IMG/VR virus record: IMGVR_UViG_3300034157_000066
DNA from: a virus
Lineage: Duplodnaviria > Heunggongvirae > Uroviricota > Caudoviricetes
Length of the DNA: 64,000 nt
Reading direction: 5' to 3' (one strand)
Below the pieces are notes generated by a model. That model made no database searches and was not told where the DNA came from. It saw only the letters and a program-made list of their open reading frames with translations. Numbering within the stretch: position 1 is the first letter of the stretch; every line of letters begins with the position of its first letter. Of this stretch, positions 334 through 63,185 are shown piece after piece. Position numbers and translations under genes: made by a program.

Positions 334-383
334 TTAAAATGTTATTTTTTGGTATAATAAGCCATTGAAAAGAGGATTTATTA

Positions 384-758
384 ATGCCAATTGTTGATCT
401 GAAGGTGCTTGAAGTAAGCCCTAGTCCTTATGCCAATCAGTATGTGGTTGAAATTACATTTCTTCATCCTTATGATGAGATCACGGCAACCGAAACAGCC
501 GTGTTTTCAGTTGGTCAAAAAGCTGACGTGATTGAATTTGTAAACTTCTTGAACGAAGCCGGTGACTATGTTCGAGAACATGGCCTAGAACCTGATGAAG
601 TTAAAGGTTATGAGAAATGGTGCGAATACAGTGAACCCGGCTTGCAAGTTTGGCCTTCTGATGCGAACGGTAATTACTTTGCTAACTTGGAAGACGTTGA
701 TGTCTCCTACTTCGATGTTTTTGGTAATTGCTTTGATGTAGAGTTGGTCGAGGGCTGA
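384..758 (+). CDS. acidic hypothetical protein
   Basis: GGTATAAT promoter, AGAGGA SD; about 25 D/E vs 5 K/R in 124 aa. Confidence 0.75.
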   Translation: MPIVDLKVLEVSPSPYANQYVVEITFLHPYDEITATETAVFSVGQKADVIEFVNFLNEAGDYVREHGLEPDEVKGYEKWCEYSEPGLQVWPSDANGNYFANLEDVDVSYFDVFGNCFDVELVEG

Positions 759-795
759 TTTTAGTCCTATCTTAAATCTTGAAAGGATATTGATT

Positions 796-1263
796 ATGCG
801 TATCAACAAAAACTTGAAATCGATCACCGCCGCTTCTGCGAAATTCGCCAAGCATCAATATCCTTTTGGCTCGATTTATGATTTTAACAAAGCCATCGTC
901 AAAATGGATCTTGAAAAGAATCTATTTTCCGTGACCTATCTTGAATCGTCCAGCTATGACAGTGACGATGACAGTCTTTTTTATCAGGCTTCGGATACTG
1001 AGTATTTTGGTCTTGATAACTCTACACTTCTGTCTATCGTCCGTTTCCATGTTGGGCTGGTATTGCCAAAGGAAAAGAGCCGTGTTGTTCGTCAGGTAGC
1101 CCGTGATGTAGTCAAATCCATGCGAAACAAGCACGCTTACACCCAAGTTGGTTGGTATGGTCATTCGAAAGATTATTCGCAGTATATTATGCCAATTGAT
1201 GAGTTCGTTAATTTAGTGGCTGCTGCTGTTATTCCAGTCAATCAGGAAATGGAGGTAGCATGA
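796..1263 (+). CDS. hypothetical protein
   Basis: AAAGGA SD before ATG 796. Confidence 0.7.
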   Translation: MRINKNLKSITAASAKFAKHQYPFGSIYDFNKAIVKMDLEKNLFSVTYLESSSYDSDDDSLFYQASDTEYFGLDNSTLLSIVRFHVGLVLPKEKSRVVRQVARDVVKSMRNKHAYTQVGWYGHSKDYSQYIMPIDEFVNLVAAAVIPVNQEMEVA

Positions 1264-1535
1264 GTATTCTTGGATATATCGGCCTTGGTCTTTTTCTGTT
1301 GTTTTGTATCGGTATGATCTGGCAAATCCACTCTGACATGCAAGATACCAGTAGTGCGATTTCTCGCGGTTATGGTTTTGCTAATATTACGCACTCAGCA
1401 CAGGTTTTTGAAGCTACTGGCGTTGATTTGTTGGGTGATATTGACTACTTGGCCCATGACCATAAACCAGCAAAGCAGAAAAAAACGAAACCTCGAAAAT
1501 CAAACCCAAACAGCGGTTTCGAATTTGAAATTTAA
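1260..1535 (+). CDS. small membrane protein
   Basis: GGAGG SD, ATGA overlap with upstream stop, N-terminal TM. Confidence 0.7.
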   Translation: MSILGYIGLGLFLLFCIGMIWQIHSDMQDTSSAISRGYGFANITHSAQVFEATGVDLLGDIDYLAHDHKPAKQKKTKPRKSNPNSGFEFEI

Positions 1536-1643
1536 AAAGCTTGTGTAAAAACTGCTTTTTATGTATAATAGCCCTAAGAAAGATGAATTGAACAAAAGAC
1601 AAAGTTTTCAGAAATGATTTACTCACTTATTAGAGGATCTAAA

Positions 1644-1940
1644 ATGAACACTTCAACAGCTTCTAGCGGTCATTTGTTGTTTGTTAATGGTTCTATTATG
1701 GATGGTACGTTTGAGTGCGATCCTGTTCAATTGCCTGTTCTTAACGAGGCAATCACTACCTATTCATCGTTGGTCAATAAGCACTCTCTTGCAACGGATC
1801 AGAAGCCTTTCACGGGTGAAGTCTCCTTGGTTGAGTTGTTGGCCTACATCCATGCTTATTATGACATCACAAACCCTTTGCTTAAAGACATGGCTGAATG
1901 TTTGTTGATCATTCATCGCAAGAGTATCACTATCCACTAA
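1644..1940 (+). CDS. hypothetical protein
   Basis: AGAGGA SD, own promoter. Confidence 0.65.
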   Translation: MNTSTASSGHLLFVNGSIMDGTFECDPVQLPVLNEAITTYSSLVNKHSLATDQKPFTGEVSLVELLAYIHAYYDITNPLLKDMAECLLIIHRKSITIH

Positions 1941-2005
1941 TTGTTGTGGACAAAAAAACTCATTTTTGCTATAATCATTTTCTAAATTTGAAGTGGAGTG
2001 GCGTC

Positions 2006-2356
2006 ATGGTTGGTTACGAGCGTAAATTTGAAATCAGTAAAAGTTCCATTATGCAGCCAGACCGCCAATGGATCGTAATCACGTTTAAACCGAATGGTTA
2101 CTGGTCTGAGGAAGCGATCAAGGTTCGGGCCGTTGTTATTAATAAACAAGGTATTGAAGTCTCCATCAATAACTCAATGGGTGGTGAAGCTGAATATGAC
2201 TCGATTGCTCGGGCTGAATCTTTTCATTCGGCCTATGGTCAAGCCATTCTGGATATGAAACGTATTCACGAAGCGTTCGCGTCTGGACAGCGGGATATTG
2301 ATGACATCATGAACCATGTCAATGACCAATATGCCATTGACAAAGCCAGTCGTTAA
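2006..2356 (+). CDS. hypothetical protein
   Basis: GGAG SD, promoter, downstream terminator. Confidence 0.7.
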   Translation: MVGYERKFEISKSSIMQPDRQWIVITFKPNGYWSEEAIKVRAVVINKQGIEVSINNSMGGEAEYDSIARAESFHSAYGQAILDMKRIHEAFASGQRDIDDIMNHVNDQYAIDKASR

Positions 2357-2372
2357 TCGACACTGCTAAAAG

Positions 2373-2394
2373 ACCTTCTTCGGAAGGTTTTTTT
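2373..2394 (+). terminator. intrinsic terminator (representative of dozens)
   Basis: ACCTTC-TTCG-GAAGGT plus T-run. Confidence 0.85.
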
Positions 2395-2465
2395 ATTTCC
2401 AAAAAAAGATTGTATGAAAACTGATTTTTGTGTATAATCAATCTACTTTCTTAGGAGATACACCC

Positions 2466-3209
2466 TTGAAAAACATGACTCCGATGGCAATGTTGAAACC
2501 AGAATTGGCTCAGTTTAAAGAACTGGCGTTCATTTCTTACTTTGAACTCAATCGCAAAGAAGAACGTCATACGTTTGCCAACGAGCAAATGTATGTGTCG
2601 GCGGCTGTAACGTTTGACTTCATGGGTATTTTTAACATTCGTGGTGGTATTCACTACAATGAGAAAGGCCATCAGCGATTTGATCGTAGCTTCTCGTTTT
2701 GTTTCAATTTCAAAGATGGTGAACCTACCGTTCGGGCATCTATTAAGCCATCGAAAGACCTGTCGGCTGAATACTCGCGTGAATTCTCGGTTGCTGAAAT
2801 CAAACCCAAGATGAATGCTTTGCTGACCTTGGGTATCACTGACAAAGAAGAATTCCTGAAAGCGTTTGTTCAAGAATTTGACATTATTATCAGCTCGGCT
2901 TTGACAATTTCAGCTCTGAACGCCATCAAGGCCGAACGTGTCAAAGAAGTTGAAGATGTCATGGCTCGCTTCAAAGCCGCTAATCAGGCCGTTGACGCTG
3001 CTCGGGAACTGTTATGGGCTACCGAAATTGCAAACCGTGGCGATGCTCAATTGCCAAAACAACGTGCTCAAATGGGCGAAGCAATGGACAAGGCACGGGA
3101 ATTACTGACTCAGCGAACGTTTCTGTTGACCAACAACACAAAAAACATTCCAGCGTATGCCCGTGACCTGTTCTACAAAGAGTTGAAGCAAAAAAATATC
3201 ATTTCTTGA
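2466..3209 (+). CDS. hypothetical protein, paralog of 30205..30915
   Basis: TTG start after AGGAG; MKNMTPMAMLKPEL vs MKNTTPMQVLKPLL; shared VTFD..GGI..KRF. Confidence 0.75.
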   Translation: MKNMTPMAMLKPELAQFKELAFISYFELNRKEERHTFANEQMYVSAAVTFDFMGIFNIRGGIHYNEKGHQRFDRSFSFCFNFKDGEPTVRASIKPSKDLSAEYSREFSVAEIKPKMNALLTLGITDKEEFLKAFVQEFDIIISSALTISALNAIKAERVKEVEDVMARFKAANQAVDAARELLWATEIANRGDAQLPKQRAQMGEAMDKARELLTQRTFLLTNNTKNIPAYARDLFYKELKQKNIIS

Positions 3210-3309
3210 TAGTCGCTTGTTAAGAACCATTAAAAGCCCTGAATAATCTTGTTTTTGTTCGGGGCTTTTGCTATAATAGCCTTACTCAAACACAAATGGA
3301 TTAAATATC

Positions 3310-4065
3310 ATGAATCGAGTCACCATCAAGAACTCCCCGATTGAAGGTCAGTGGATGTTGGTTGACACTCCAGAAAATTTGATGACTTTCATGGAACATA
3401 CTTCCAGCCAAGTGGTTGCACAAGTTAGCCATTTGATCCGTGAGAAAGCCGAGATTGAAAGCTGGGGTGATGTTCCACGCACTACACCGGCTGCTGGCAT
3501 CCTTGCAGCAACTGTTGCTCACTGCAAACTTCATGGTAAAAACCCAATTTATGAATTGGATGGCATTATCAACAAACGTTTCTCCAATATGCTGGCAGAA
3601 ATTCTTGATGGTAAACGAGTGCTGATTAACTCAGCAGGTGGCTATTGCTTCATGCTTCCAGAATGGGAAGTGGAGACAGAGGAACCTGTTGATATGGGGT
3701 GGAAACCTACTCACGTCATCAATGCAAACACCCAATACATCAACCTTGAAAATGACCCGTATCTGGAAGAACACACACGTCAGTATTTGGGACAACGAGA
3801 TGCGAATTTTTCCTACATCTTGAATTTGGGCGGTTATACAAAAGAAGCTCTGGTGTCGGTGTTTACCGAATTCAAAGCAAACGGTGGCAAAATCGTTTAT
3901 GTTTACACCACAGGTATGAACGTGCCTCAGATGTATGAATACTTTGATGCTGCACAGAAGGCAGGTTTGAAGGACTTTGAGTTCCATTTTAATGCCTTCA
4001 TCACTGATGGTATCCAAGGCTTTATTGAGCATATCAAAGATCGGGCCAATGTGACTATCCTGTAA
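3310..4065 (+). CDS. hypothetical protein
   Basis: 251 aa ORF, TTGTTT-17-TATAAT promoter, terminator. Confidence 0.75.
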   Translation: MNRVTIKNSPIEGQWMLVDTPENLMTFMEHTSSQVVAQVSHLIREKAEIESWGDVPRTTPAAGILAATVAHCKLHGKNPIYELDGIINKRFSNMLAEILDGKRVLINSAGGYCFMLPEWEVETEEPVDMGWKPTHVINANTQYINLENDPYLEEHTRQYLGQRDANFSYILNLGGYTKEALVSVFTEFKANGGKIVYVYTTGMNVPQMYEYFDAAQKAGLKDFEFHFNAFITDGIQGFIEHIKDRANVTIL

Positions 4066-4166
4066 TACGAAGACATCAAAACAAAGGCACCTTCTGGTGT
4101 CTTTTTTTGTTGAGATAACTAATCAATTTTGGTATAATCAAAATTCCATAACAGCGGTGAAAAATC

Positions 4167-4280
4167 ATGAAAGAAATGGTTGAAGGAATGAACAGTATCG
4201 TCATTATCGGTTTTTTGGCTATTGGTGTTTTTGCAGTTATTGAATTCTATTACCGGCATCAATTCAAAAAACACCTTTAA
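4167..4280 (+). CDS. 37-aa single-TM peptide
   Basis: MKEMVEGMNSIVIIGFLAIGVFAVIEFYYRHQFKKHL; promoter upstream; below ORF-track cutoff. Confidence 0.55.
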   Translation: MKEMVEGMNSIVIIGFLAIGVFAVIEFYYRHQFKKHL

Positions 4281-4369
4281 TTGAACAAAAATATCTTTAC
4301 ATAAAATCTGATTTTCGCTATACTTGTCTCATCAAAACGAAACACCACAAACCAGTCGGAGATACACAA

Positions 4370-4501
4370 ATGCAAGGTTCTTTCGGTGAAGCAACAGAAC
4401 GTTTTCGCGGCAAGCAACAAGACGCTTCCAAGACCAAAGAAAATCGCAAAGAACGTCAGTTCCGTGATGCTCGCCGCAACCGTCATCAAGACTCCGAATA
4501 A
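4370..4501 (+). CDS. 43-aa basic peptide, copy 1
   Basis: MQGSFGEATERFRGKQQDASKTKENRKERQFRDARRNRHQDSE; GGAG SD; two paralogs in window. Confidence 0.85.
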   Translation: MQGSFGEATERFRGKQQDASKTKENRKERQFRDARRNRHQDSE

Positions 4502-4512
4502 GGAAATCCATC

Positions 4513-4821
4513 ATGTATTTAATTGCCGTTAAAGACCTCGATCCGAAAAATGCTCTTGGCTACATGTTCTGGTCTGGATTCAAAGCTGACGCACAAGGCG
4601 ATGGCTCTCTGCCTACCTTCAACAAACCAATGGTCAGTGCTGACAAAGGCTTTCAAGAAAACGAAAAAAGCCTGCAGGCTACTCTGTTCACCACCAAAGA
4701 GTATGCTGAAAAAGAAGTTATTCGACTCAAAGAACTTATCCATAAACATACAGGTAAGTATTACGAGATGGAAACAATCAGTGCCGACTTGGCTGGTAGT
4801 ATGTTGAAGCTCTGGAAGTAA
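4513..4821 (+). CDS. hypothetical protein, paralog of 46591..46875
   Basis: shared LG(Y/F)..WSGF and F(T/S)T.EYA..E..R. Confidence 0.75.
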   Translation: MYLIAVKDLDPKNALGYMFWSGFKADAQGDGSLPTFNKPMVSADKGFQENEKSLQATLFTTKEYAEKEVIRLKELIHKHTGKYYEMETISADLAGSMLKLWK

Positions 4822-4913
4822 CCAGACTTTAAAGAAAAGGGAGCTTAGGCTCCTTTTTTGTTGCCTATTATTCTGTTTTTTGTTATCATCATAATCTAAA
4901 TTAAGGAGGCTTC

Positions 4914-5156
4914 ATGAAAACGCTTACGACAAAAAATGTTGCTGGTTCAGTTGCTGAAATGATCGGTGTTGAAGATATGATTGCCGCCTTGAAAGAGCTT
5001 CCAGCCGGTTCAAAGCTATGTGTTCGTCAAGAAGGTTTTTACGCTCTTGGTAAATTTGCTGACATCAATTTGCCGGAAGCCATCACTGTAACCGATGAGG
5101 TTACAAAAGAACAAGTTGTCGTCTACTCCATCGGAGACAGTGATCAAAACTACTAA
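4914..5156 (+). CDS. hypothetical protein
   Basis: AAGGAGG SD, terminator. Confidence 0.75.
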   Translation: MKTLTTKNVAGSVAEMIGVEDMIAALKELPAGSKLCVRQEGFYALGKFADINLPEAITVTDEVTKEQVVVYSIGDSDQNY

Positions 5157-5348
5157 TCGACAGGTTTCAAAAGAAGACAGCTACGGCTGTTTTCTTTGTT
5201 TATATATTTATTTTTATATGAATGTGATAGCATTTTGATATTTAAATTTATATAAAAAATAATTGACATCATTGTACTCCGAGGTAAATTATTAATTAAG
5301 AGTTGGGTTTAGACTAACTTGGAAGTTAATATTAATAACGGAGAATAC

Positions 5349-5831
5349 ATGTTTTCACTTATTATCTCGATCATTTCTATTGCTCTTATGGCTGCGTTAT
5401 CTGTTGCAACAATTGCTTATGGATTTTATGCCTATAACAACAATTCTATTTATACAAAAGCAACTTACTTATTAAATACTGCAAACACTATTGCTACTGC
5501 TGCTATTTTTGCGAAAAATGAAGGCGTTTCCATGACTGGCATGAGCGTTGACAATGTGAGTAAACTTAAAGATGCTGCCTATTTAACACACGTTCCTAAC
5601 TATGAAAGTGTTGACTTTGTAATTGATGCGGATGAGTCCTTAGTTAAAATACAAGACTCAGCATTACTTTCACTTGATGTTTGTAAACAGATTATTGCTA
5701 ATTATGACACCCTTAAATTTGACACTGTTTCAACTATTCCTGATGACCCTATTGATGGTCGTAAATATGGTTGTCATGTTGGTTCAAGTGGTGCTGGTTA
5801 TTACACGTTTTATTATCGTATTGATAAATAA
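5349..5831 (+). CDS. pilin-like protein lacking a prepilin leader
   Basis: MFSLIISIISIAL hydrophobic N-terminus, amphipathic continuation, C-terminal Cys pair. Confidence 0.6.
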   Translation: MFSLIISIISIALMAALSVATIAYGFYAYNNNSIYTKATYLLNTANTIATAAIFAKNEGVSMTGMSVDNVSKLKDAAYLTHVPNYESVDFVIDADESLVKIQDSALLSLDVCKQIIANYDTLKFDTVSTIPDDPIDGRKYGCHVGSSGAGYYTFYYRIDK

Positions 5832-5872
5832 TCAAGTCGAAAAAAAAGACTGTTTCAACAGTCTTCTTTTGT

Positions 5873-6283
5873 TTATTCGTCCATCTTGTCTTGGGCCATT
5901 GAAAGGCGTCTTCTAAACTCAAGTGGGTCAGCAATATACTTGATAGGGGCATTGCCATGACCAGTCCCTGATACGATAATTGTTCCAAAATTAAACATTC
6001 GGCCCATCAACCCTTGATTAACTTGAATACTTTCAACTTTTTTCAAGTTTATTTCAACAGTGTCTCTCTGGATAAATCCTTTTTTAGCAATCAATCGTTT
6101 ATTGGTGACAGCGAGTTCTGTACACTTTTTCTGAATGTAGACAACCACTAAAATCACAATACCTACAATAACAGGAATAAGTAGTACACCGAAAAAGATC
6201 TGCCAAAAGAAACCCCAGTTACTTAAACTTGCTTCATATTCAATTTTCTCACCGTCCATCAAGTTGTCACTTACATAACTCAT
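5873..6283 (-). CDS. bacterial PH-domain (bPH_2/YdbS-like) membrane protein
   Basis: TM hairpin then ELAVTNKRLIAKKGFI..INLKKVESIQVNQGLMGRMFNFGTIIV. Confidence 0.8.
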   Translation of the reverse strand: MSYVSDNLMDGEKIEYEASLSNWGFFWQIFFGVLLIPVIVGIVILVVVYIQKKCTELAVTNKRLIAKKGFIQRDTVEINLKKVESIQVNQGLMGRMFNFGTIIVSGTGHGNAPIKYIADPLEFRRRLSMAQDKMDE

Positions 6284-6434
6284 AGCATTCCTCCATTGTT
6301 CCACATAATATATCAAATATTGATATTTTTTCAAGACATATTTTAGATTATTATGTAAGTTTCCATTACAGCTTAAAATGCTTGATTAAAAAGCTAGAAT
6401 TTGATATGATTAATCAACATTTAGAGGACTTTAT

Positions 6435-6707
6435 ATGAAACACATCACTCGCTTTAATTCGGGATTGATTGCAATTATTTTTGCGTTGCTGGCGATTGTC
6501 TTTTTTCAAAGTGTTCGATATTCCGCTCATATGGAATATCATGTATCCAAAGATCTTCCGATTTGGTTTCATATCGGGTTTGTGCTGATGTTAGTTTCGA
6601 TTGTTTTTTCAACTCTATTTTGTTTGGTCGCTTGGGCATATACACCACACAATAATTTGCAGACGAATGCCGAAGAAACAACAGAACTTGACACTGTTGT
6701 TGGATAA
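6435..6707 (+). CDS. two-TM membrane protein
   Basis: AGAGGA SD, two hydrophobic segments. Confidence 0.65.
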   Translation: MKHITRFNSGLIAIIFALLAIVFFQSVRYSAHMEYHVSKDLPIWFHIGFVLMLVSIVFSTLFCLVAWAYTPHNNLQTNAEETTELDTVVG

Positions 6708-6767
6708 ATCACTTTACTAAAAATATGTTTTTTGATAGAATAGATCATAAACTTAAAATGGAAAGAC

Positions 6768-7238
6768 ATGATGAAACGATTTATTTTCTCTAAAATCACA
6801 ATTGTTTTCGTTGTCCACATAATGCTTTTGGTTGGCCTTTACTATGGCACCAAATCAATTGCAATGGTTCATGATCGGGCAGTAGTTCCTGTTTATCTGG
6901 TTGCTGTTAAACCTGATTCTGCAAAAACTTACGATGAAAATGGTTTTTTTATCGGTCAATTTGTTGGTGAATTTGACTATGAAGGTCACCGATTTGAACA
7001 AAATATTTCAATAAGCCAACGATTTGAGTTGATTCAATCGAAAAAGCCTGTTAGACACATGAAACTTCTTTCAGCGGCTGAAATAGGTCTTGATACGCCT
7101 TTCAATGGGCCGGGAACATATCTTTTTTATATACTTTCGATGGCTACATTCTTCTTAATGTTTTTGTTTACTGACCTTCCAAAATTTTACAGGGCTAATC
7201 AAAAAACTGTTTTTGATGAAAATAAAGCTTGCTCGTAA
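6768..7238 (+). CDS. two-TM protein with central soluble domain
   Basis: TM at both ends; topology like 21908 and 59759. Confidence 0.7.
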   Translation: MMKRFIFSKITIVFVVHIMLLVGLYYGTKSIAMVHDRAVVPVYLVAVKPDSAKTYDENGFFIGQFVGEFDYEGHRFEQNISISQRFELIQSKKPVRHMKLLSAAEIGLDTPFNGPGTYLFYILSMATFFLMFLFTDLPKFYRANQKTVFDENKACS

Positions 7239-7302
7239 ATGTGTTTTTTGATATGATAGACACATCAAAACGAGATACCCAATCAAATATCGGAGATACA
7301 CC

Positions 7303-7815
7303 ATGACCAAAGTTACCGCTCTCGAAACCGCAGTAATCGTGAACATCGTTGCTCTCGGCACTTCGTCGGTAAATGTTCAAACTATCACTACCGGCCCAGA
7401 AGCTGTAAAGCTCTCTCAGGTGAATGCAGTTCTCTTGAACCTGAAAGGTAAAGGTCTGGTTTCCCGTGATGGCGAAGGTGTTTCGCTGACTGAGGCTGGG
7501 GTTTCTCTCCATGCTGAACTGTTCCCGGCTCAGAAAGACCTCGATACCCTGCGTCACGAAAGCAACTTGGAACTGAACCGCCCAGCCAAGCCATCTTCAG
7601 CACATGAACTGAAACTCATCAACGAACTGATTGAACTTCGCACCAAGGCTCGACGTTTGGCAGCCGATGTGACTGAACTCGAAGCAGAAGTCATACCGCG
7701 TAGCTTCTCGGAAGTCATTTTCAGCATGTTCCCAAATGCAGTGAATGTCAAAATGGCTTCGATGGAACCTCTTGACCTGATGGGTTATCCAATGACCACC
7801 GTAGTAGTCGAATAA
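7303..7815 (+). CDS. winged-helix DNA-binding protein with coiled-coil C-terminus
   Basis: TALE.AV..NI.A.G...QV.AV..N...KGL..R....VSLT..G shared with 45105. Confidence 0.6.
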   Translation: MTKVTALETAVIVNIVALGTSSVNVQTITTGPEAVKLSQVNAVLLNLKGKGLVSRDGEGVSLTEAGVSLHAELFPAQKDLDTLRHESNLELNRPAKPSSAHELKLINELIELRTKARRLAADVTELEAEVIPRSFSEVIFSMFPNAVNVKMASMEPLDLMGYPMTTVVVE

Positions 7816-7834
7816 GAAAAAAGACTCAACAAGA

Positions 7835-7887
7835 AAGAGGCTTCGGCCTCTTTTCTTGTTGTTATTAGAACTCTTTTTTGATACAAT
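7835..7887 (+). repeat. 53-bp terminator+promoter cassette, copy 1
   Basis: 2 mismatches vs 8197..8249. Confidence 0.95.
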
Positions 7888-7915
7888 GAATAACTTATAT
7901 TAATTAGGAGCATTC

Positions 7916-8194
7916 ATGAAAAAGACATTTATTCTTGCACTTGCACTCGCTCTTTCTGTGTCGGCAGGTTGTAATGCAGAAGAAAAAACTAACACTAACA
8001 CACAAAGTAATATTTCAGGCAAAAAGACTAGATCTGTTACTTGTTATTCAGGAAATGCAGTAACTTACCAACATGACAATGTTATTTTGGTCGCTAGCAT
8101 TACTGATACTGACATTTCTGCAAGAATTCAAGAAGCTGATACTGGCATTAATATGCGGGTTCCTGTTTCGCAATGTTATTTTAAAGATAATTGA
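7916..8194 (+). CDS. small exported/lipoprotein-like protein
   Basis: signal peptide ending SAG-C; bracketed by 53-bp direct repeats. Confidence 0.75.
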   Translation: MKKTFILALALALSVSAGCNAEEKTNTNTQSNISGKKTRSVTCYSGNAVTYQHDNVILVASITDTDISARIQEADTGINMRVPVSQCYFKDN

Positions 8195-8196
8195 GT

Positions 8197-8249
8197 AAGA
8201 GGCTTCGGCCTCTTTTCTTGTTGTTATTATAACTCTTTTTTGATATAAT
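8197..8249 (+). repeat. 53-bp terminator+promoter cassette, copy 2
   Basis: AAGAGGCTTCGGCCTCTTTTCTTGTTGTTATTATAACTCTTTTTTGATATAAT. Confidence 0.95.
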
Positions 8250-8279
8250 TATCATCCACTCAATGAGATAGAGTACATC

Positions 8280-8456
8280 ATGAGCTATTTTGAAGAAGAG
8301 TCCCATCCAGTTACTCGCTTCGCACTGTTCCCACGTCAGATTGCTGGTCAGTGGTTTTGGTTAAAGTCTTTTGTATCAGATCGCGTGCTTGTTCATGGTC
8401 GTATGGATGGCTGCAGCACTGACATCTATGAATATCAGAACCATCGCTTGGTCTAA
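8280..8456 (+). CDS. 58-aa hypothetical protein
   Basis: MSYFEEESHPVTRFALFPRQIAGQWFWLK..; downstream of promoter. Confidence 0.6.
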   Translation: MSYFEEESHPVTRFALFPRQIAGQWFWLKSFVSDRVLVHGRMDGCSTDIYEYQNHRLV

Positions 8457-8520
8457 AACTAGTTGTGAAATGTCGTTTTTAATGATATGATCATCCCATC
8501 AAACATTCCGAGGATTTAAA

Positions 8521-8946: not shown

Positions 8947-9099
8947 CAAATTTTGACTTCACACAAAAGAGGCTTCTGCCTCTTTTTTATTATCAATAAA
9001 CTATAAAATGATAAAAAATTTCTTTACATGATGGATCAATTTCGTTATAATTATCCCATCAAAACGAAACACCACAATCAAACAGTTAGGAGATACACC

Positions 9100-11676: not shown

Positions 11677-11687
11677 GGAACTATTCC

Positions 11688-54181: not shown

Positions 54182-55237
54182 ATGTCAATAACAATGGTGG
54201 AAAAATATGATGCTTTATTAAAGCAGTTTGTGACGAACAACATGGCTACTTTACTGGCTAGTAGACGATATAAAGAGCCAAAAGATGGTAAAGCAGAATA
54301 TGCCCTTCATTACTTGCCTGAACACAATAAAACACCTGATCCCGGTTTTATCGGTGAGACACCTCAGTTTAACGAACTTCTTGAAACTTTTATTGACACT
54401 TTTATTAATCTTGAAACTATCTCCTTCCAAATGCAAGGACACTTTCCTGAGTTAAATGGGCGTTCTGTTGCTTATGTTATCGAGAATGTTCGTTCTTATA
54501 AGCGAGATATTATTCGCTTTGAATATGAATATAAATTACTGCTTGACGTATTCCATGCTTTCTTGGGTATTCGTGATAATACTAAAATTAATTATTTCAT
54601 GTTTAGTTATGGACATAATCAAATTGAGTTCCAAAGCACACTTGGCTGTCCATCTTGTAATGAATACTTATCCATGATTATTGATTACGATAAAATGGGC
54701 GTTGTTTCACTTATCAAAAAACCAGATTGTCCATTAGCTGCAGCTCCAAAAAATGTGGTGGTTGAACTTAAATCACCTTCTGGTAAGTTGGTGTTTCTTA
54801 ATGACCCTCGACAGTTCTTGAAAATTGAACGTGATAACAGATATAAAGTCTCTATTAATTCAACAATGGGTTGTCTTCAAGAAACAGAAGCTTATGCCGA
54901 ACAGAATGTGGGCTATTTCTTTATTGGTAACTGTATGCCTTATATATTCCAGAAAGGCAATGAAATTCTATTCAGCTCTTTCAATGAAGAAAGCGATGAG
55001 GATATCGAACATTTTAAAGAGTATGAAGAACTGGGTTACGTGTGTACCGGCCTCTGGTGGTATTCAATCCTTGACCATCAATTGTTCTTAGACCTTTGTG
55101 CCAGTAAGGGCGTTAACCCGGCTTCTATTGAACATACTGTGGCGATCACCAATAAAGAAACCTTCACCGTTGATCATGACATGACCGCACACAAAGAAGG
55201 ACATTTTTCTGGAACGTATTCAACAATAACCTACTAA
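54182..55237 (+). CDS. hypothetical protein with CxxC, paralog of 51898
   Basis: same motifs; duplicated promoter TTGTTGATATTC..TATAATCCCGAAATCTT. Confidence 0.8.
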   Translation: MSITMVEKYDALLKQFVTNNMATLLASRRYKEPKDGKAEYALHYLPEHNKTPDPGFIGETPQFNELLETFIDTFINLETISFQMQGHFPELNGRSVAYVIENVRSYKRDIIRFEYEYKLLLDVFHAFLGIRDNTKINYFMFSYGHNQIEFQSTLGCPSCNEYLSMIIDYDKMGVVSLIKKPDCPLAAAPKNVVVELKSPSGKLVFLNDPRQFLKIERDNRYKVSINSTMGCLQETEAYAEQNVGYFFIGNCMPYIFQKGNEILFSSFNEESDEDIEHFKEYEELGYVCTGLWWYSILDHQLFLDLCASKGVNPASIEHTVAITNKETFTVDHDMTAHKEGHFSGTYSTITY

Positions 55238-55412
55238 TCAGTAAGGCTTTTATAAATGGGGCTTCGGCTCCATTTTTTTGCTTATAAAATGACAACCCGT
55301 TCTCATCAATATTACAATTCCCCACTTTTCCCCCTCATTTGGGTAAATTCCCCTTGTTTTGGTGGTGGCACTTTGTTATAATCATCACACACAAACAGAC
55401 AGAGATAAACAA

Positions 55413-56126
55413 ATGTTCAAGAAAGCCATTATCGTTGCAGTTGCCAGCTTGATTGTAGGTTGTTCGGCAAACGGTGTAAAAGCCCCAGTCAATGTTGATG
55501 TGAAAGCATCTGTTAATGGCCTTCAAAATTTTAACGTGGCTGAAAACAAAAGCCTAACTGTTTCCGGTAAAGAACTTCAGTTCATCACCTTCTACAAGAA
55601 GACTGAAACCGTTGTTGTTGAAAACGGTAAGAAGTTCAAAGACACTTTGGAAGATTTCGGTAGTGGCGTTCAGTGGAATGAAGATTATGTCGTCACTGCC
55701 AAACACGTTAACTTTGCAGACAACTCTGCTTACAAGTGCCGTGAAGGGTGCGATATTCAGTTTGTTAAGCGTAAAGCCACTGTTGCTGCACCAGTATGGC
55801 GGGATGTGGTAGCTCTGGAACAAATCACCTTCGTGGGTGTTGACCAGACGAATACCCTGCAAGCAAAAACGGGCAGCGACATTGATATGCAAACCACCAC
55901 TTCTTCTAACCACTCAGTTAAAGTTCATGTAGTGTCAGTTCCAACTGTTGGCGGTATGTCCGGTGGCCCAGCTTACGCGAAAGATGGTTCGGTGGTTGGT
56001 GTGCTGACTGGTAGTGTTACCCTTGGCAAGAACCCTACTGAAATGGGTGTCTTTGTTCCTTACGAGACTATCAAATCTGAATGGGATAAGTTCCAAGCCC
56101 AACAAGCTCAGGTCGCTATGAAATAA
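55413..56126 (+). CDS. lipoprotein trypsin-like serine protease
   Basis: IVG-C lipobox; VTAKH, CDIQF, GMSGGP catalytic triad motifs. Confidence 0.85.
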   Translation: MFKKAIIVAVASLIVGCSANGVKAPVNVDVKASVNGLQNFNVAENKSLTVSGKELQFITFYKKTETVVVENGKKFKDTLEDFGSGVQWNEDYVVTAKHVNFADNSAYKCREGCDIQFVKRKATVAAPVWRDVVALEQITFVGVDQTNTLQAKTGSDIDMQTTTSSNHSVKVHVVSVPTVGGMSGGPAYAKDGSVVGVLTGSVTLGKNPTEMGVFVPYETIKSEWDKFQAQQAQVAMK

Positions 56127-56249
56127 CGAATACTCATTAAACAGACCGCCTTCGGGCGGTTTTTTGTTGTTAATATTCTTGTTTTTGTTGCTTGCCATTG
56201 TGGTTTTTGTTATACTTGAACCATCAAAACGACATCAAGGAATTACGTC

Positions 56250-56567
56250 ATGACTACTGCTCAGACTCAAGTTTCCAAGTTTGATCGTGAACAATACCTC
56301 AATGGCAAATGCACACCTGCCGACTACTACGCACAGTTCATCACACCGACTGGTGTTGCGTTGGTTGAACGTAGTCCCATCTTTCAAACTCTCAAAAACA
56401 CTGAAGTCAAAAAACTTACCGATCTTCCTTTGATGGGTTGGAACGGTATTGGTTCCGCATCGGATGCTTGCCGGTTGCTGACTGAACTTGGCGATCACTG
56501 GTCGTTGGCGACATCGGTTGTCATTAATAAAACAATTGCAGCTCATCTTCTGGGTATTAAATTCTAA
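56250..56567 (+). CDS. hypothetical protein, paralog of 49444
   Basis: see 49444. Confidence 0.8.
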   Translation: MTTAQTQVSKFDREQYLNGKCTPADYYAQFITPTGVALVERSPIFQTLKNTEVKKLTDLPLMGWNGIGSASDACRLLTELGDHWSLATSVVINKTIAAHLLGIKF

Positions 56568-56675
56568 TTGTTTTCATTTGAATGGATGGGTTTTTATACT
56601 CCATCTTTTTCTTTTTTTCTTGCCTTATTATGTGTTTAGTATTATAATACGTTATCACTTAAAGGAGATTCCACT

Positions 56676-56906
56676 ATGTATCTTGCCAACATGACTATCT
56701 TGAATGGTGTTGCTTCGGAATCTGGCCGTGTTCCTGATGTCGAGTTGAATATCTATAAAAATGACAAAGACGAACTCGAAGTCATTGAGTTCATCACCCG
56801 CGATGGTAGCGGCCTTGGTAATAATCCACAAATCTTGATCCCTGTTTCAGAGATCGACAATGTGATTGCCATGCTGCAACAAGTAAAAGCCCAACAATCC
56901 GCATAA
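56676..56906 (+). CDS. hypothetical protein
   Basis: AAGGAG SD. Confidence 0.7.
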   Translation: MYLANMTILNGVASESGRVPDVELNIYKNDKDELEVIEFITRDGSGLGNNPQILIPVSEIDNVIAMLQQVKAQQSA

Positions 56907-56915
56907 GGATTCATC

Positions 56916-57065
56916 ATGTATAACCTTGCTAATTTTCATGCCTACAACAATGAAATCTTGAAGCCTGATACTCAGGTTCTGTTGTGGTCGCGGGCAACTG
57001 GCTACTTCTTTACGACTGCCAGCGAAGTCTCTGGTCAACTGGTGGTTATCGCTGTTAGTGACTAA
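56916..57065 (+). CDS. 49-aa hypothetical protein
   Basis: AAGGA SD; MYNLANFHAYNNEILKPD.. Confidence 0.55.
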   Translation: MYNLANFHAYNNEILKPDTQVLLWSRATGYFFTTASEVSGQLVVIAVSD

Positions 57066-57139
57066 CCTCTTATCGGATGGAGCTTGATCGTTTTAGAGAT
57101 TTTTGATATAATCATGCTCTAACTCACAGAGGTATTCAC

Positions 57140-57415
57140 ATGTCCACAGCAGAAAATCAACCCCATATTGACATTGACCAAGTTATTCTTGATTTTCAGG
57201 CTAGCCATGTTGATTGCTCATTCCTGCAAGTCGTTCCAGAAGCCAAAATTTCCGCAAAAACTCAGGCTCTCTTGGATAAGGTCTTGGCTGACCCCAAGTT
57301 TGGTAACTTTTTGCACTCTGGTGAAAAATCAATCGGTTTTAATGCTTTTAAAGAAGCTTCTATCATTTTCAAACAAGCTTTTGAACGCACCCAGCACAGT
57401 CGAGGAAACCACTAA
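57140..57415 (+). CDS. hypothetical protein
   Basis: AGAGG SD. Confidence 0.7.
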   Translation: MSTAENQPHIDIDQVILDFQASHVDCSFLQVVPEAKISAKTQALLDKVLADPKFGNFLHSGEKSIGFNAFKEASIIFKQAFERTQHSRGNH

Positions 57416-57570
57416 TGTTCGGATTTCAGTTTTTCCGTTTTGACATCTATAAATTCAAGGGTGATCTTCAGTTTAACCAGAAATGGCGACCAACGATTGA
57501 CCCAAAAGAAACTGAAAAGAAACAACGCCTCTCGTATCAACGCCTGACTGGCACCTATAAGCCTTACTAA
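57415..57570 (+). CDS. 51-aa hypothetical protein
   Basis: GAGGA SD, TAATG overlap; MFGFQFFRFDIYKFKG.. Confidence 0.55.
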   Translation: MFGFQFFRFDIYKFKGDLQFNQKWRPTIDPKETEKKQRLSYQRLTGTYKPY

Positions 57571-57584
57571 ATTTTACATTTTTT

Positions 57585-57621
57585 GATTGCCAGTCTAATA
57601 GGGAACTGTTACACTGGCTTT
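57585..57621 (+). repeat. 37-bp promoter repeat, copy 1
   Basis: TTGCCA-17-TACACT with GCCAGT/ACTGGC arms; 3 mismatches vs 58696..58732. Confidence 0.9.
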
Positions 57622-57648
57622 CTGTTTTATTGTGAAAGGTATTTTTAC

Positions 57649-58674
57649 ATGATCCTAATCCCAGAAGACTTGTCCAGACAAGCATTGACTCGACTGACTA
57701 CTCATGTTCGGTCTTTGATGGGGCGTCTGAAACGTAATTATCCACAACTGACTTTTGATATTCTCGAAAAAGAGATTGTTGCTCGCATTAAAGCGACGGC
57801 CAGCGATGGCTTTTCTTATTGCGAAGTAACCGGCTTTAAATTGAATGATATGGGTAATGTGTTTATTATTCCTATCAACCCCAATGCAACCACTACTGTA
57901 ACTATTAATCAGTTGCTTATTGTTCATCAGCAAACCATTGATTGTTGGTTTGAACTTCATAAGATCTTGAAAGAAACACCCTCATTTCTGGCCTTGGATG
58001 ATTTTAAATCCCAACTTAGTTTGGTTCAAAAAACCATTCGTGGGAAAAGCAAAGAAAAAAGCCTGTCACCAAAGACCGTAAACCATACCCCTTTGCTTGA
58101 ACGAGCTTTGATTACACCAGAACGCATTATCAACTTCAATAATCGTCTAGCAACATTGGAGATAAATACAGGCCCAATCTTTAAACCATCGGCTCACGTT
58201 CGTAAAGTTTCATTCTATTCAGACCGGGCCATTCTTCGCAAAATTGAAATGTGCAAAGAGCGTTCCAAAAACAAAGGTTTTACCAGCGATCTCACTTTTG
58301 AGAACTCTAAGCACCTATTTAGCGTCACTCACTGTCAATTGACGGGTTTGCCGTTAGTTAAGGCCACTAAAACACAGGAAGACAATCCATTTGGTTTCTC
58401 GATTGACCGCATCAATCGTTTCGAAGGTTATAATGTCTCCAATCTGTTGATTGTGGCTCATGAAGTCAACAAGATAAAATCCAAACTGGAATGGTCGAAC
58501 TATACCGAAAGTGTTGAAAACCTTCGTGAGATCTTGACCAACACCAAGGATATGATGCTGAAACGTCATGCACATGACAATTTGCACAATCGACAGAAGC
58601 CGCTACCCATTGATACCATTATCAGTAACTATCTTGCGAAATCTGAAAACCACAAGAAATTCGTCTTCAATTAA
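57649..58674 (+). CDS. HNH/His-Me-finger endonuclease-like protein
   Basis: CQLTG..FSIDRIN..GY..SN.LIV..VN.IK. Confidence 0.65.
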   Translation: MILIPEDLSRQALTRLTTHVRSLMGRLKRNYPQLTFDILEKEIVARIKATASDGFSYCEVTGFKLNDMGNVFIIPINPNATTTVTINQLLIVHQQTIDCWFELHKILKETPSFLALDDFKSQLSLVQKTIRGKSKEKSLSPKTVNHTPLLERALITPERIINFNNRLATLEINTGPIFKPSAHVRKVSFYSDRAILRKIEMCKERSKNKGFTSDLTFENSKHLFSVTHCQLTGLPLVKATKTQEDNPFGFSIDRINRFEGYNVSNLLIVAHEVNKIKSKLEWSNYTESVENLREILTNTKDMMLKRHAHDNLHNRQKPLPIDTIISNYLAKSENHKKFVFN

Positions 58675-58695
58675 ACCTTAATTTCAACGAACGAA

Positions 58696-58732
58696 GATTG
58701 CCAGTCTAATAGAAAACTGTTATACTGGCTTT
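58696..58732 (+). repeat. 37-bp promoter repeat, copy 2
   Basis: TTGCCA-17-TATACT. Confidence 0.9.
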
Positions 58733-58754
58733 TTAATTTCTGGAGGTCATTTTA

Positions 58755-59216
58755 ATGGGTAACTTCTCTTTCATTTCGCAAAACAAACACGAGCCTTTGC
58801 TGAATCCTTGGCATGAACGCACTCTGTGTGAATTGCAGCTCATCTCTGATGGCGTTTTGGTTGAAGTCATGCGTGGTGTCTATACAGGTTATGGTGCGGT
58901 TGATGTCAATGATGAATTTCAACAGATCCTGTTGGTTGATGGTATCTGGACGGATATCACTGAGCAATCAAAGGTAAAAGCCACAGGCACTGATGGCGAC
59001 CTCTGGGTGACTAAATCGTGGGATGATATCAATACTACGATGTATGACAGCACTGTCAACGGCATTGCTGCTTGGCACTTGAATTCTATGACCTCCCGTG
59101 TTCCTTTTGCGACGGCGAAAAGCTTGATGGATGACGATCAGGGTGATCCCAATCATAGTGGCCGTGATAGTGATTGGCATGACGATGAGGACGATGAGAG
59201 CGGTAACTGGCGTTAA
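58755..59216 (+). CDS. acidic hypothetical protein
   Basis: GGAGG SD; D/E-rich tail. Confidence 0.75.
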   Translation: MGNFSFISQNKHEPLLNPWHERTLCELQLISDGVLVEVMRGVYTGYGAVDVNDEFQQILLVDGIWTDITEQSKVKATGTDGDLWVTKSWDDINTTMYDSTVNGIAAWHLNSMTSRVPFATAKSLMDDDQGDPNHSGRDSDWHDDEDDESGNWR

Positions 59217-59289
59217 TCATTTTTAAGTTTTAATCTTGTGGAAGCTTTCCTTGTGTGATAGAATGACCTCACAAATTTGGAGAGTTTCC

Positions 59290-59646
59290 ATGAACAATAA
59301 AATCACTCCTTTTCAGCTTGTGTCCATGATTAAAAGCTTTGGCGGTTCCAATGCCAAGTTTACTGCAGCTCTTGATTCATCTTCAAAACAATATTGCAGA
59401 CAACTCAAAAAGAAAAACCTCAAAATCATTGATGATTGTGTCAAGGAAGAAGCTGTCTTTAATCTTCTGCTTGATCGCATGACATCCACACCTACTGGCT
59501 TTTCGCTGGTCATCGGTCGTAGTGAAAAAAATATACTCGACCGTGCGTTCAAACAATTTCGTGAAGCTATGTTGAATAAGCCAGATTGCGATATTGCCGT
59601 TTATGACAACGCTTATCAGCAATTGTTGATGACCATTAGCGAATAA
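59290..59646 (+). CDS. hypothetical protein
   Basis: GGAG SD. Confidence 0.7.
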   Translation: MNNKITPFQLVSMIKSFGGSNAKFTAALDSSSKQYCRQLKKKNLKIIDDCVKEEAVFNLLLDRMTSTPTGFSLVIGRSEKNILDRAFKQFREAMLNKPDCDIAVYDNAYQQLLMTISE

Positions 59647-59758
59647 TCTCTCTTTTACAATCAAGACCTCATTATTGAGGTTTTTGTTGCTGCAGTTTTA
59701 AAATCTTGATATAATCATTCCATCAAAACCATTCATTTGTGATAGGTGGTAACCTCTT

Positions 59759-60229
59759 ATGCAGTACATCAGAAAGAACCTGCTTTGCATTTTTCTTTTT
59801 TGTGTGGGTGTCGTCATGATTTCGTATGGCGTCAAGCTTTATAACTTTGGTGTTAATTATGAGGAAAAATCAACTCGAAACATCACGCTTGTTGATACCA
59901 GTAGCACTACCTACAAGCAGAAACAAAACACTTTTTACAATACCACTGGTTTCTTTCTCGATGATTTGACTGGCAAACGGTTTCGACTTGCCATTCAAGA
60001 CAAGGTTTATCGTGAATTCGAAGCGGGTGGTAATAAGCCTATCCCTATGCAAAAGGAACTCAGTCAAGAAAACCTTGATAACAATGTTCATGGGGCTATC
60101 TGGAAATTGCTGGGTGTTTTGATGTTTATCGTGGGTAACTTGTTTGTTATTTGGGTATTAGTGAGTAAATTTGTCGAATATAAAGCAAAGTGGCTTCATT
60201 TTGTTAAATTTGGCAAATACCAAGAATAA
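59759..60229 (+). CDS. two-TM protein with central domain
   Basis: TM-soluble-TM. Confidence 0.7.
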   Translation: MQYIRKNLLCIFLFCVGVVMISYGVKLYNFGVNYEEKSTRNITLVDTSSTTYKQKQNTFYNTTGFFLDDLTGKRFRLAIQDKVYREFEAGGNKPIPMQKELSQENLDNNVHGAIWKLLGVLMFIVGNLFVIWVLVSKFVEYKAKWLHFVKFGKYQE

Positions 60230-60268
60230 CCCTTGCAGGTTTATCTGTTTGTTGATAAAATATTGTCT

Positions 60269-60319
60269 TCGAAGCGGCAAAAGGCGAGCATTCAAATAAG
60301 CCTTTCCTTTTGTTTCTGC
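60269..60319 (+). ncRNA. candidate structured 5'-UTR element, copy 1
   Basis: homologous to 61961..62003 with compensatory stem changes. Confidence 0.55.
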
Positions 60320-60340
60320 TCATTACTTGGAAGATAGATT

Positions 60341-61072
60341 ATGAACAATTCCGAAACTCAAGATGAACTTAAAAAAATCCCAAGTTTTGGTCTTGTCGAA
60401 TATTTTTCCAATAATTTCGCTGACTCTTCTTTTGAGTATGGCAGTGATCGATGGGGTATTTGCCGTTATCCATTAGATTCTGCTGGGAAGCGTATTGTTG
60501 AATTGCTTGAATATTGCCCTCATACTTTAGGTTTGAATGGGGGAGCAGCCGATAAATCTGAAACTATTGTGATCTTGACTTCATATAAAGGTGACACTCC
60601 TAATTCGATTTATTTCAAATTCAATCCTGAGATTGTTGATGTTTATTCAAATCATTTCGATGACTTGGATTGTGACAATATTAATGCCTTTGTCAACCGA
60701 CTTATCCAGCATATGGAATTTATTAACAAGGTTAACACTTTTGATAAATTTGAATTATTTAAATGTGCTGACTTCAATGTTTTTTTTAATTTTAAATATG
60801 ATCATACCGTTAATCGTATTTTTCGAGTTGCAAATATCGCCTTTAACCCGATTGCAGGCCATGACAAAAAGGTCGTATGCACCTTCACTAATAATACGTT
60901 AACAACAATGTCCAGCCTGCGAAAAATGGATATGGAATTTTTTAACCGTTACTATAAACACAAAATACAGGAAGCCATTCCTGATCAGAGTTTTGATGAC
61001 CTTCATGCGTTGATTGACATCTCAAATTGGAATGAAAATTTAAAATCGCTTGTAAAGATGGCCTACTATTGA
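60341..61072 (+). CDS. hypothetical protein
   Basis: 243 aa, AT-rich. Confidence 0.75.
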   Translation: MNNSETQDELKKIPSFGLVEYFSNNFADSSFEYGSDRWGICRYPLDSAGKRIVELLEYCPHTLGLNGGAADKSETIVILTSYKGDTPNSIYFKFNPEIVDVYSNHFDDLDCDNINAFVNRLIQHMEFINKVNTFDKFELFKCADFNVFFNFKYDHTVNRIFRVANIAFNPIAGHDKKVVCTFTNNTLTTMSSLRKMDMEFFNRYYKHKIQEAIPDQSFDDLHALIDISNWNENLKSLVKMAYY

Positions 61073-61109
61073 TACAATAAGCTCAACAACAAACACCCGA
61101 GGAAAATAA

Positions 61110-61508
61110 ATGAATCATATTCAAAAATTTAACCGTGCTCTGTTGAAAGCCATTGCTGCCAAAAAAATCGTTGTTGCTGACCGTAACAGTGGTGCTATCC
61201 GTGAAGCTGTCGTCAAGTTCAGCTTTTCCCATGATGGTGTTACCCACTTCTATGCACTGTCGTCTGAGCGGACGGCTCCCGGTCTGGAACTGTTGGGCTA
61301 TGACGCACCGCCTAAGCTCACTCTGTCGGCTTACAATGCGTCCTTCACCAGTGGGGCTAACACTGACTTGCCGGAAGGCGTTGATGTGTCGGCTATCAAA
61401 TACATCGAATCTTACTCTGTTATTTCGGAAGAAGACGCTGCCAAGGCCCGTGAAATCTTGGTAGAAGCGTTTAACCGCTTCAATGTTGAAATGTGCCTTC
61501 CACACTAA
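61110..61508 (+). CDS. hypothetical protein
   Basis: GAGGA SD, terminator. Confidence 0.75.
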   Translation: MNHIQKFNRALLKAIAAKKIVVADRNSGAIREAVVKFSFSHDGVTHFYALSSERTAPGLELLGYDAPPKLTLSAYNASFTSGANTDLPEGVDVSAIKYIESYSVISEEDAAKAREILVEAFNRFNVEMCLPH

Positions 61509-61638
61509 AATATCCACTTTGAACACTGGGGCTTCGGCCCCTTTTTTTGTTTTTAAAATAAATGCTTGATCAAAAAACTCGTTTTTGTTATACTTACCAC
61601 ATCAAACAGATTGTAGTTCTCAAACTTTGAGGTTTATC

Positions 61639-61914
61639 ATGAAAGTTATTATTGCTGGCAATGTGTCTCATGAAATCAAAGTAACTCGAATCAAGCCTAA
61701 GCTGTGGGGTGTTCGTTGCTTTACTAACGGCATACTCAATCAAGAAATCCAAGTTCAATGCAAAGCGGATATCGGGGTTGCAGCGGCTGACATGCTTCGC
61801 TGGGAAGACAAGTGCGGTAATCACTCCGACCAAGCCACCGCCAGCCGTGAGCGTTTTAACAAAGGCCCAAAATGGCGAGCTTACCAACGACCAACTAAAA
61901 AAATCACGGTCTAA
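61639..61914 (+). CDS. hypothetical protein
   Basis: GAGG SD. Confidence 0.7.
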   Translation: MKVIIAGNVSHEIKVTRIKPKLWGVRCFTNGILNQEIQVQCKADIGVAAADMLRWEDKCGNHSDQATASRERFNKGPKWRAYQRPTKKITV

Positions 61915-61960
61915 TTCAAAAAAGCTTGTTTTGGGTTGAGTATTTTAGTATAATGACCCA

Positions 61961-62003
61961 TCGAAGCAGCAAGGGTGAGCATAAGCCTTTCCCTTGCCTC
62001 TGC
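61961..62003 (+). ncRNA. candidate structured 5'-UTR element, copy 2
   Basis: GCAG-CAAGGG..CCCTTG-CCT-CTGC stem just after promoter. Confidence 0.55.
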
Positions 62004-62027
62004 AAACCTCAGCGAATGGAATGACTA

Positions 62028-62576
62028 ATGAATAATCAAAAAAAAGAAACGCCAAGTCAGTTTCGTAAGCGTTTCAAACATTATCAAGGTCACTATGTCC
62101 GCGTTGTGGATATCGATCTTGAACACGTTGAAAAACTCGTCACCAATCATTATGTCGCTTCTGGCATTAGCTGGAATGAGGTTGATATTGCTGTTGATTT
62201 TTTTAATAAACAGCTCAAATCGTTCATTCATAAAAACATGAGTGAAACCAACCATCAGAAAGCGTCTATCAAATCGTTGGATTTTTGGATCTACTACGTT
62301 CCAAACGGCAATGGAAAAGCAGTGGTGACGGTTCAAACTGAAACCATTAAAGATTTCTTGAAACCTGCCTTATATTACGCTGGCATGTCTTACCCTGAAT
62401 ATGGTGATGAGCAAGAAGCTGTCTTGAAACTGGCTACTGATAGCTTTGACCGGAGCTATGCAGACGCCGCTAAGTTCGTTGACGCCGCTCGACTGCATGA
62501 TGAAAACGAAGCCTTGAAACGCCGGGTTGCTTGGCTTGAAAAACAGAACATCGGCATTGATTTTAAAAATATTTGA
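62028..62576 (+). CDS. hypothetical protein
   Basis: 182 aa, C-terminal coiled coil. Confidence 0.75.
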   Translation: MNNQKKETPSQFRKRFKHYQGHYVRVVDIDLEHVEKLVTNHYVASGISWNEVDIAVDFFNKQLKSFIHKNMSETNHQKASIKSLDFWIYYVPNGNGKAVVTVQTETIKDFLKPALYYAGMSYPEYGDEQEAVLKLATDSFDRSYADAAKFVDAARLHDENEALKRRVAWLEKQNIGIDFKNI

Positions 62577-62649
62577 AATAGTGGTTGCCTATAAATCTGT
62601 TTTTTGGTAAAATTATCACATCAAAACAGAAACCCAAAAGGGAAACATC

Positions 62650-63102
62650 ATGGAAACCATCATCAAGTTTGAAGCCGGTAAAACCTATGCAACCCCTTCG
62701 ATTTGTGACTCCCAGATGATGGTGACTGCGACTATCGTAAAACGCACGGCTAAACGTGTAACCTTTCACATGAAAGGCGAAACCAAAACCAAAACAAAAG
62801 GCATCACTATCTATGATGGCAAGGAAGTGTTTTATCCTTGGGGCCAATACAGCATGTGCCCAAGCCTTCATGCTGATGATGTGGTTGAAGAAAAGGCTTC
62901 GACCCCAGACCCGATTGAATCCAAGGTGCTGTTTGAAAGTGGCGAAACACTGGCCGACTTGTTCGAAGAAGGTAAAGAATTGTTCTCGCAAGAGCAAATC
63001 GACGGTATTAAATCTGCTTTGGCTGGCCTGTTGTTTGGCGAAGCTTGCACACCAGAACGCCCAACCGCAAAAATCTACAACATGGCCGATTACCGCCGTT
63101 AA
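62650..63102 (+). CDS. hypothetical protein
   Basis: FEAGKTY..SICD..KRTAKRVT..G.YSM.P.L.A. Confidence 0.75.
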   Translation: METIIKFEAGKTYATPSICDSQMMVTATIVKRTAKRVTFHMKGETKTKTKGITIYDGKEVFYPWGQYSMCPSLHADDVVEEKASTPDPIESKVLFESGETLADLFEEGKELFSQEQIDGIKSALAGLLFGEACTPERPTAKIYNMADYRR

Positions 63103-63185
63103 TTCGGTGGTTTTGCCGAAAATTGTTGTTTTTGTATGGGTGGTTTGGTATAATCACCCTACTCACTTCTTCCAAGGCGAACATC

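Follow-up and report, generated by a model that had tools for sequence, protein, structure and literature searches.

Promoter-early stem-loop (PeSL) cassettes have been described in the T4-type phages RB49/phi1, PST/T4 and nt-1/KVP40 (PMC2839356; PMC4122927), and similar cassettes are found in other T4-type phages (PMC4122927). Most of their stems either overlap the -10 box or sit between the two promoter boxes; G-T pairs are marked within them, and in a lacZ assay one PeSL stem lowered expression like a strong terminator (PMC2839356). A comparable arrangement is present in the virus record IMGVR_UViG_3300034157_000066, analysed here over a stretch of 64,000 nucleotides (the window). Small genes, mostly unknown, are densely packed on its + strand, and a minority of their promoters fold into hairpins that include the -10 box. 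The layout matches the published PeSL kind and does not amount to a new promoter class; what is new is the carrier, together with the pattern in which strong embedded stems and upstream terminators exclude each other, the latter needing replication on the whole element. The favored reading, with a probability of roughly 0.55, is that these are PeSL-like composite cassettes whose stems act on read-through RNA.

As in PeSL cassettes, a sigma-70-like promoter is combined with an AT-rich upstream region and a ribosome site and serves small unknown genes in a variable region; a stem-loop precedes the boxes, lies within them or overlaps them, G-T pairs occur, and genes are exchanged at the cassette. 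Unlike the phage examples, the carrier is a 1.9-Mb element and not a known T4-type phage, and the window stems lack a common sequence such as the poly-G/poly-C of RB49. Embedded stems at or below -10 kcal/mol are also fewer (8/92 promoters), whereas the same test on RB49 returned 12/26, many of them wrapped around the -10 box. With respect to PeSL stem positions, the window holds 38 upstream terminators, eight strong -10-overlapping stems and one -35-overlapping stem, leaving about 45 promoters without any. Within individual cassettes, TTG at -35, often a TG extended -10, a C/A-rich start region and a ribosome site recur, and position counts over 63 promoters reveal the AT-rich upstream region and sigma-70-like -35 and -10 boxes. 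Profile hits for this promoter number 100 on the + strand vs 10 on the - strand, and the promoter that each small gene possesses is, by its sequence, of the host-type sigma-70 class. Additionally, one window protein (alignment A1) matches PHROG families annotated as Srd or decoy of host sigma70.

Excess pairing was assessed on 92 promoters picked blind to folding, comprising 63 gene-leading TATAAT promoters and 29 held-out promoters with variant -10 boxes. A plain shuffle would exaggerate pairing here, the spacers being rich in T and the start regions in A/C, and two other controls were therefore used, namely a half-swap, in which the upstream half of one promoter is fused to the downstream half of another, and a shuffle of each promoter's own spacer or own discriminator. 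Half-swap z-scores lay between -6.0 and -7.3 for the + strand and between -3.8 and -4.4 for the - strand; the held-out promoters gave -2.2 and -3.2. The GC contents of the two halves are correlated (rho 0.45), but this does not explain the excess, which survives shuffling of the own spacer (z -6.7) and of the own discriminator (z -5.5). Pairing is concentrated in a tail: eight promoters reach -10 kcal/mol or lower vs 1.2 expected, 13 reach -8 kcal/mol or lower vs 3.9 expected, and z drops to -1.9 and -1.2 once the top 16-20 promoters are removed. The hairpins are real but confined to about 10-15% of promoters (8-13 of 92). A preliminary description had proposed one at each promoter, a claim that fails, as the excess over controls lies in this tail. 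Every inverted repeat quoted in that description is present where it was placed. Those at 46536, 46898, 57589, 58700, 63138 and 61933 are strong, whereas those at 4125, 33720, 27599 and 26773 are at chance level, with 31%, 30%, 17% and 10% of chimeras, respectively, being equally stable; the stems at 4125 and 26773 are also weaker in relatives. Taken as a class, hairpins covering the -35 box show no enrichment (z -1.6), and only that at 3232-3269 stands out, which is the strongest promoter-embedded hairpin of the window and occupies a second PeSL-type position.

Strong stems are found at 8/54 promoters lacking a canonical upstream terminator and at 0/38 with one (p=0.011; p=0.033 after merging of sister copies), and pairing within the two classes gives z-scores of -8.0 and -1.7, respectively. 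The -10 boxes of all eight strong promoters lie 28-75 nt past a same-strand stop codon, where a terminator or 3' stabilizer would sit; at 46536, for example, no terminator lies upstream and the preceding open reading frame ends at 46513. Geometrically, a transcript begun at the cassette's own promoter includes no more than the last part of the 3' arm, and the stem can therefore form only in RNA arriving from upstream. As all strong stems occur at terminator-less promoters, an action on read-through RNA, which the preliminary description had put forward as one possibility, fits best. This context is the discriminating result; DNA-level and operator models offer no reason for the link with terminators.

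Where the gap behind the upstream gene contains no terminator of its own, the positions left free in the following promoter, those of its spacer and discriminator, have in a minority of cases been shaped into a stem of 8-12 bp, as excess pairing, conservation and some covariation show. In read-through RNA, such a stem would most likely mark or protect the 3' end of the upstream message. The stems at 57589 and 58700, with their U-rich tails, may act in pausing and attenuation or in termination, while the remaining stems may serve protection or processing, for instance by blocking 3' exonucleases. For an RNase III site, a stem length of 8-12 bp is short. Furthermore, the promoter boxes common to cassettes also serve as sites of exchange when genes are gained or lost, as two junctions in relatives show. 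At L016:9497, a chimeric promoter consists of 61949 and 62608 joined at the -10 box, and the gene at 62028 is missing there; at L020:6783, promoters 21083 and 21391 are joined in the same way and the gene at 21128 is missing. These are the only two clear cases of the PeSL signature of one chimeric cassette at a gene loss or gain. If the proposed reading is correct, PeSL-type cassettes and cassette-level gene shuffling would be known not only from T4-like phages but also from an uncultured element of megabase scale. The reading would also add the testable rule that embedded stems arise where a separate terminator is missing, which bears on the role of -10-overlapping PeSL stems without U-tracts.

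Conservation among relatives points to selection on a subset of the hairpins. Stems at 46536, 46898, 57589, 58700, 63134 and 45974 are kept, three of them also in the distant relative L013, and stem positions vary at 15%, against 34% at the corresponding positions of other promoters (p=2e-6). The hairpin at 46536 is retained in seven relatives including L013, with loop changes, one C-G to T-G change and one terminal pair lost, and at 46898 the G-U pair is invariant in 8/8 sequences. Two-sided changes are found at 46898 (T-A to C-G in L013), at 58700 (C-G to T-A in L014/L015/L017/L018) and at 45974, where T-G to C-G and G-T to A-T changes also occur. The 57589 stem is identical in relatives, with variation in the loop only; that at 24165 ranges from -8.7 to -12.5 with some pairs broken; and that at 3232-3269 persists in L023/L025 apart from wobble-type changes (G-C to G-T, T-G to T-A). 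On the + strand, native orthologs folded better than ortholog chimeras (p=0.025), a difference that was not significant for the - strand (p=0.21); some of the automatically assigned orthologs are paralogs. Conservation and two-sided changes thus support selection on a subset, although the events are few; the selection previously proposed holds in this narrower form, its strand specificity being only suggestive.

The same stems might alternatively be by-products of template-switch mutation of quasi-palindromes, local cassette duplication and general promoter conservation, with no selection on structure. The eight strong cases reduce to about six independent origins, as 46536/46898 and 57589/58700 are sister pairs, and the loops are conserved too. 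A small E. coli control also gave an apparent excess; its 11 pattern matches include one -20 kcal palindrome that is perhaps no promoter. However, stems persist in a relative in which the neighboring protein is only 65% identical, with two-sided changes and G-T pairs retained, and template switching would be expected to perfect palindromes instead of retaining wobbles. Such an origin is regarded as improbable. Another view, best suited to 57589/58700, treats the arms as operator half-sites at which dimeric repressors would bind across the promoter. Operators are typically palindromes placed over a promoter, and these two promoters have a common 30-bp sequence over -35 to -10, but arms differ among promoters and their spacing varies. 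In four relatives, both 58700 arms have changed jointly and those of 57589 remain as before, a pattern expected of structure but not of recognition by sequence; operators appear very unlikely. Nor is there support for a dedicated factor reading the hairpin, as had been suggested, since no fixed dyad center, loop or sequence and no operator register was found across the promoters.

The evidence for a strand bias, and for a G-T wobble involving the final T of TATAAT, is suggestive only. A strand-neutral pick gave better folding of the + strand in 8/10 cases with one tie (p=0.03 without the tie), and the invariant G-U pair at 46898 leans the same way. One-sided changes in core stems, hand-counted after dropping misaligned rows, comprise six G-T vs one A-C (p=0.06), and the strand-neutral version of this count is not significant (p 0.05-0.14). 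The wobble of that last T with a G, previously noted in several promoters, does occur in 5/8 natives, but 31% of equally stable chimeras have it as well (p=0.066), and the G-U fraction in natives equals that in chimeras. The idea that G takes the place of A so as to avoid a reverse TATAAT would draw on two sister promoters. An alternative reading is a DNA-level switch, in which negative supercoiling would extrude the inverted repeat as a cruciform or single-strand hairpin and so tune or silence the promoter. Such a switch would suit the AT-rich flanks and an excess that is equal on both strands under DNA energy parameters (z -5.2 and -5.1). It also has precedents, as an N4 hairpin placed in the rrnB promoter spacer abolished activity in a gyrase-dependent manner (PMC4496689) and the promoter regions of E. 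coli show an enrichment of inverted repeats (PMC6060812). Yet such a switch gives no grounds for expecting the stems where terminators are missing, conserved G-T pairs become A-C mismatches on the opposite strand, and the stems are weak as DNA (-2 to -9 kcal/mol); its probability is judged to be low. More doubtful still is a variant in which the conserved stems act on DNA, the non-template strand folding so as to place the final T of the -10 box within a G-T wobble. This would make a subset of genes on a giant mobile element responsive to supercoiling or to a single-stranded state, for example right after transfer into a new cell.

Several results weigh against the read-through reading. The terminator classification follows a simple rule that missed a few likely terminators, 46/54 terminator-less promoters have no strong stem, and a U-tract is missing in 5/8 strong stems. 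The equal two-strand excess under DNA parameters belongs here too. Inside strong promoters, stems and their own loops do not differ significantly in conservation (p=0.14). The covariation amounts to a small number of events, and an alignment-level test of it gave no significance (75/500 shuffles). Finally, 26 promoters of relatives' genes without window homologs showed no excess (z -0.8 and -1.5; 0 strong) at low power (P=0.09 at the window's rate), a result that would also be expected of by-products. An earlier "independent" set of 74 promoters was dropped as biased, its selection having removed conserved orthologs; on the + strand it had shown no excess, and on the - strand an excess that is unexplained (z -3.4), an indication that the swap control can be noisy.

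In T4, genes e, soc, 49 and I-TevI have hairpins that occlude the ribosome site in a transcript-specific manner. Like the window cassettes, these enclose the promoter within the hairpin, which therefore forms only in read-through RNA; unlike them, the window stems do not preferentially hide the ribosome site, with a mean accessibility loss of about 0.11 at strong stems vs 0.18 elsewhere and partial occlusion only at 46913 and 61949. Behind promoters 61949 and 60256, the leaders are related in sequence (61962-61995 and 60268-60310); that of 61949 folds as a 5' hairpin, and similar leaders occur in L011 (15330, 16290).

N4 virion RNA polymerase (vRNAP) promoters and the Frpo single-stranded promoter had been offered as precedents, but the architecture differs, and PeSL cassettes, which were overlooked, are closer. 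The Frpo/ssi element of conjugative plasmids mimics a double-stranded promoter through regions complementary to -35 and -10 (PMC11541004). The window promoters likewise combine sigma-70 boxes with fold-back on a possible plasmid, but their stems are short and local, the spacer pairs with the start region, and the -10 box is often partly in the loop. No long distal partner of the Frpo type was found, the matches all being interrupted and the mean duplex being -16.4 vs -16.0 for the null. The N4 vRNAP promoter is a template-strand hairpin with a conserved 3-nt loop centered at -11, used by a phage polymerase (PMC4496689). As in N4, stem bases near the start site vary and need only pair, whereas the window loops are of 4-9 nt, their centers vary and the boxes are host-type; no fixed 3-nt loop centered at -11 was present in the window promoters. 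A conjugative megaplasmid as carrier, on a 1.9-Mb contig with pilin/shufflon-like genes, would favor single-stranded DNA or hairpin promoters of either kind. Nevertheless, the stems do not leave both boxes double-stranded, any bias is toward the non-template strand, and the promoters are ordinary sigma-70 ones, which renders this the least probable of the explanations considered. The features discussed are collected in Table 1.

Table 1. Promoter array and embedded hairpins of the window (energies in kcal/mol).
Feature	Position	Strand	Remarks
Promoter array	345..63741	+	~92 sigma-70-type promoter cassettes, mostly one per small unknown gene
15-bp stem, -35 box in loop, spacer as 3' arm (promoter -10 at 3272)	3232..3269	+	-21.8
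Borderline hairpin	7239..7265	+	-8.0; 4% of chimeras equally stable; variable in relatives
Two-part stem around -10 box (24184)	24165..24205	+	-13.5; alternative fold puts -35 box in loop
8-bp hairpin around TATCAT (45983)	45974..45993	+	-11.3; absent from the preliminary description
12-bp hairpin around -10 box (TATAAT 46552-46557), one G-T pair	46536..46563	+	-16.9; dinucleotide z -3.4
11-bp hairpin around -10 box (46913-46918)	46898..46923	+	-13.3; core in common with 46536
Intermediate hairpin	55362..55388	+	-9.2; remodelled in relatives (-6.2 to -11.3)
Hairpin from -35 to just beyond -10 box (TACACT 57610), T-rich tail, terminator-like	57589..57618	+	-16.0
Sister copy of 57589 (TATACT 58721)	58700..58729	+	-14.6; T-rich tail poorly conserved
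Hairpin around -10 box (61949)	61933..61959	+	-10.3; cassette is a gene gain/loss junction
Hairpin around -10 box (63149), one G-T pair	63134..63162	+	-13.2; 8-bp core identical in close relatives

The window proteins sit on a contig of 1,917,244 bp, and the contigs of relatives measure 1.84-1.86 Mb. Close relatives are 83-86% identical to the window in DNA, and in two distant ones the query protein is 65-71% identical. DNA searches with the window against phage and plasmid records returned no match, and viral and GTDB scans found no relatives. Only nine Pfam families are represented among 98 window proteins, the recognizable genes being those for a thymidine kinase, an RNA 2'-phosphotransferase, a cell-wall hydrolase and pilin/shufflon-like proteins. 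The carrier, a megabase-scale uncultured mobile element, could be a megaplasmid, possibly a conjugative one, or a phage. With regard to the carrier only, it resembles the pMEGA megaplasmids of Enterobacteriaceae in its megabase size, mostly hypothetical genes and several pilin/shufflon-like genes, but its G+C content is 38%, vs 26% for pMEGA4 (10.1101/2025.09.30.679422). The pMEGA paper makes no mention of promoters or hairpins (10.1101/2025.09.30.679422). Pilin/shufflon-N-like genes lie at 40920-42527, 50155-51819 and elsewhere in the window; the C-terminus of the 50155 gene is 60-67% identical to proteins of large Pseudomonas plasmids, and this gene is missing from the matching region of relatives.

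The gene content of the array varies among relatives. A TnpB/IS605-type gene is inserted at L020:14347-15495 and L021:14339-15487, and the window is without it. Three related genes with signal-peptide-like starts lie in tandem at 9282-11279 on the - strand, with a copy number that differs in relatives. A block of unknown genes of 300-360 aa occupies 51898-52983, 53140-54066 (- strand) and 54182-55237; its outer two genes have related promoters and partly repeated sequence, and its counterpart in L008/L009 contains an additional - strand copy. Additionally, a near-identical ribosome-site/start segment ending in MAK is present in four genes (42654, 43111, 45105 and 45482), two of which are tandem paralogs.

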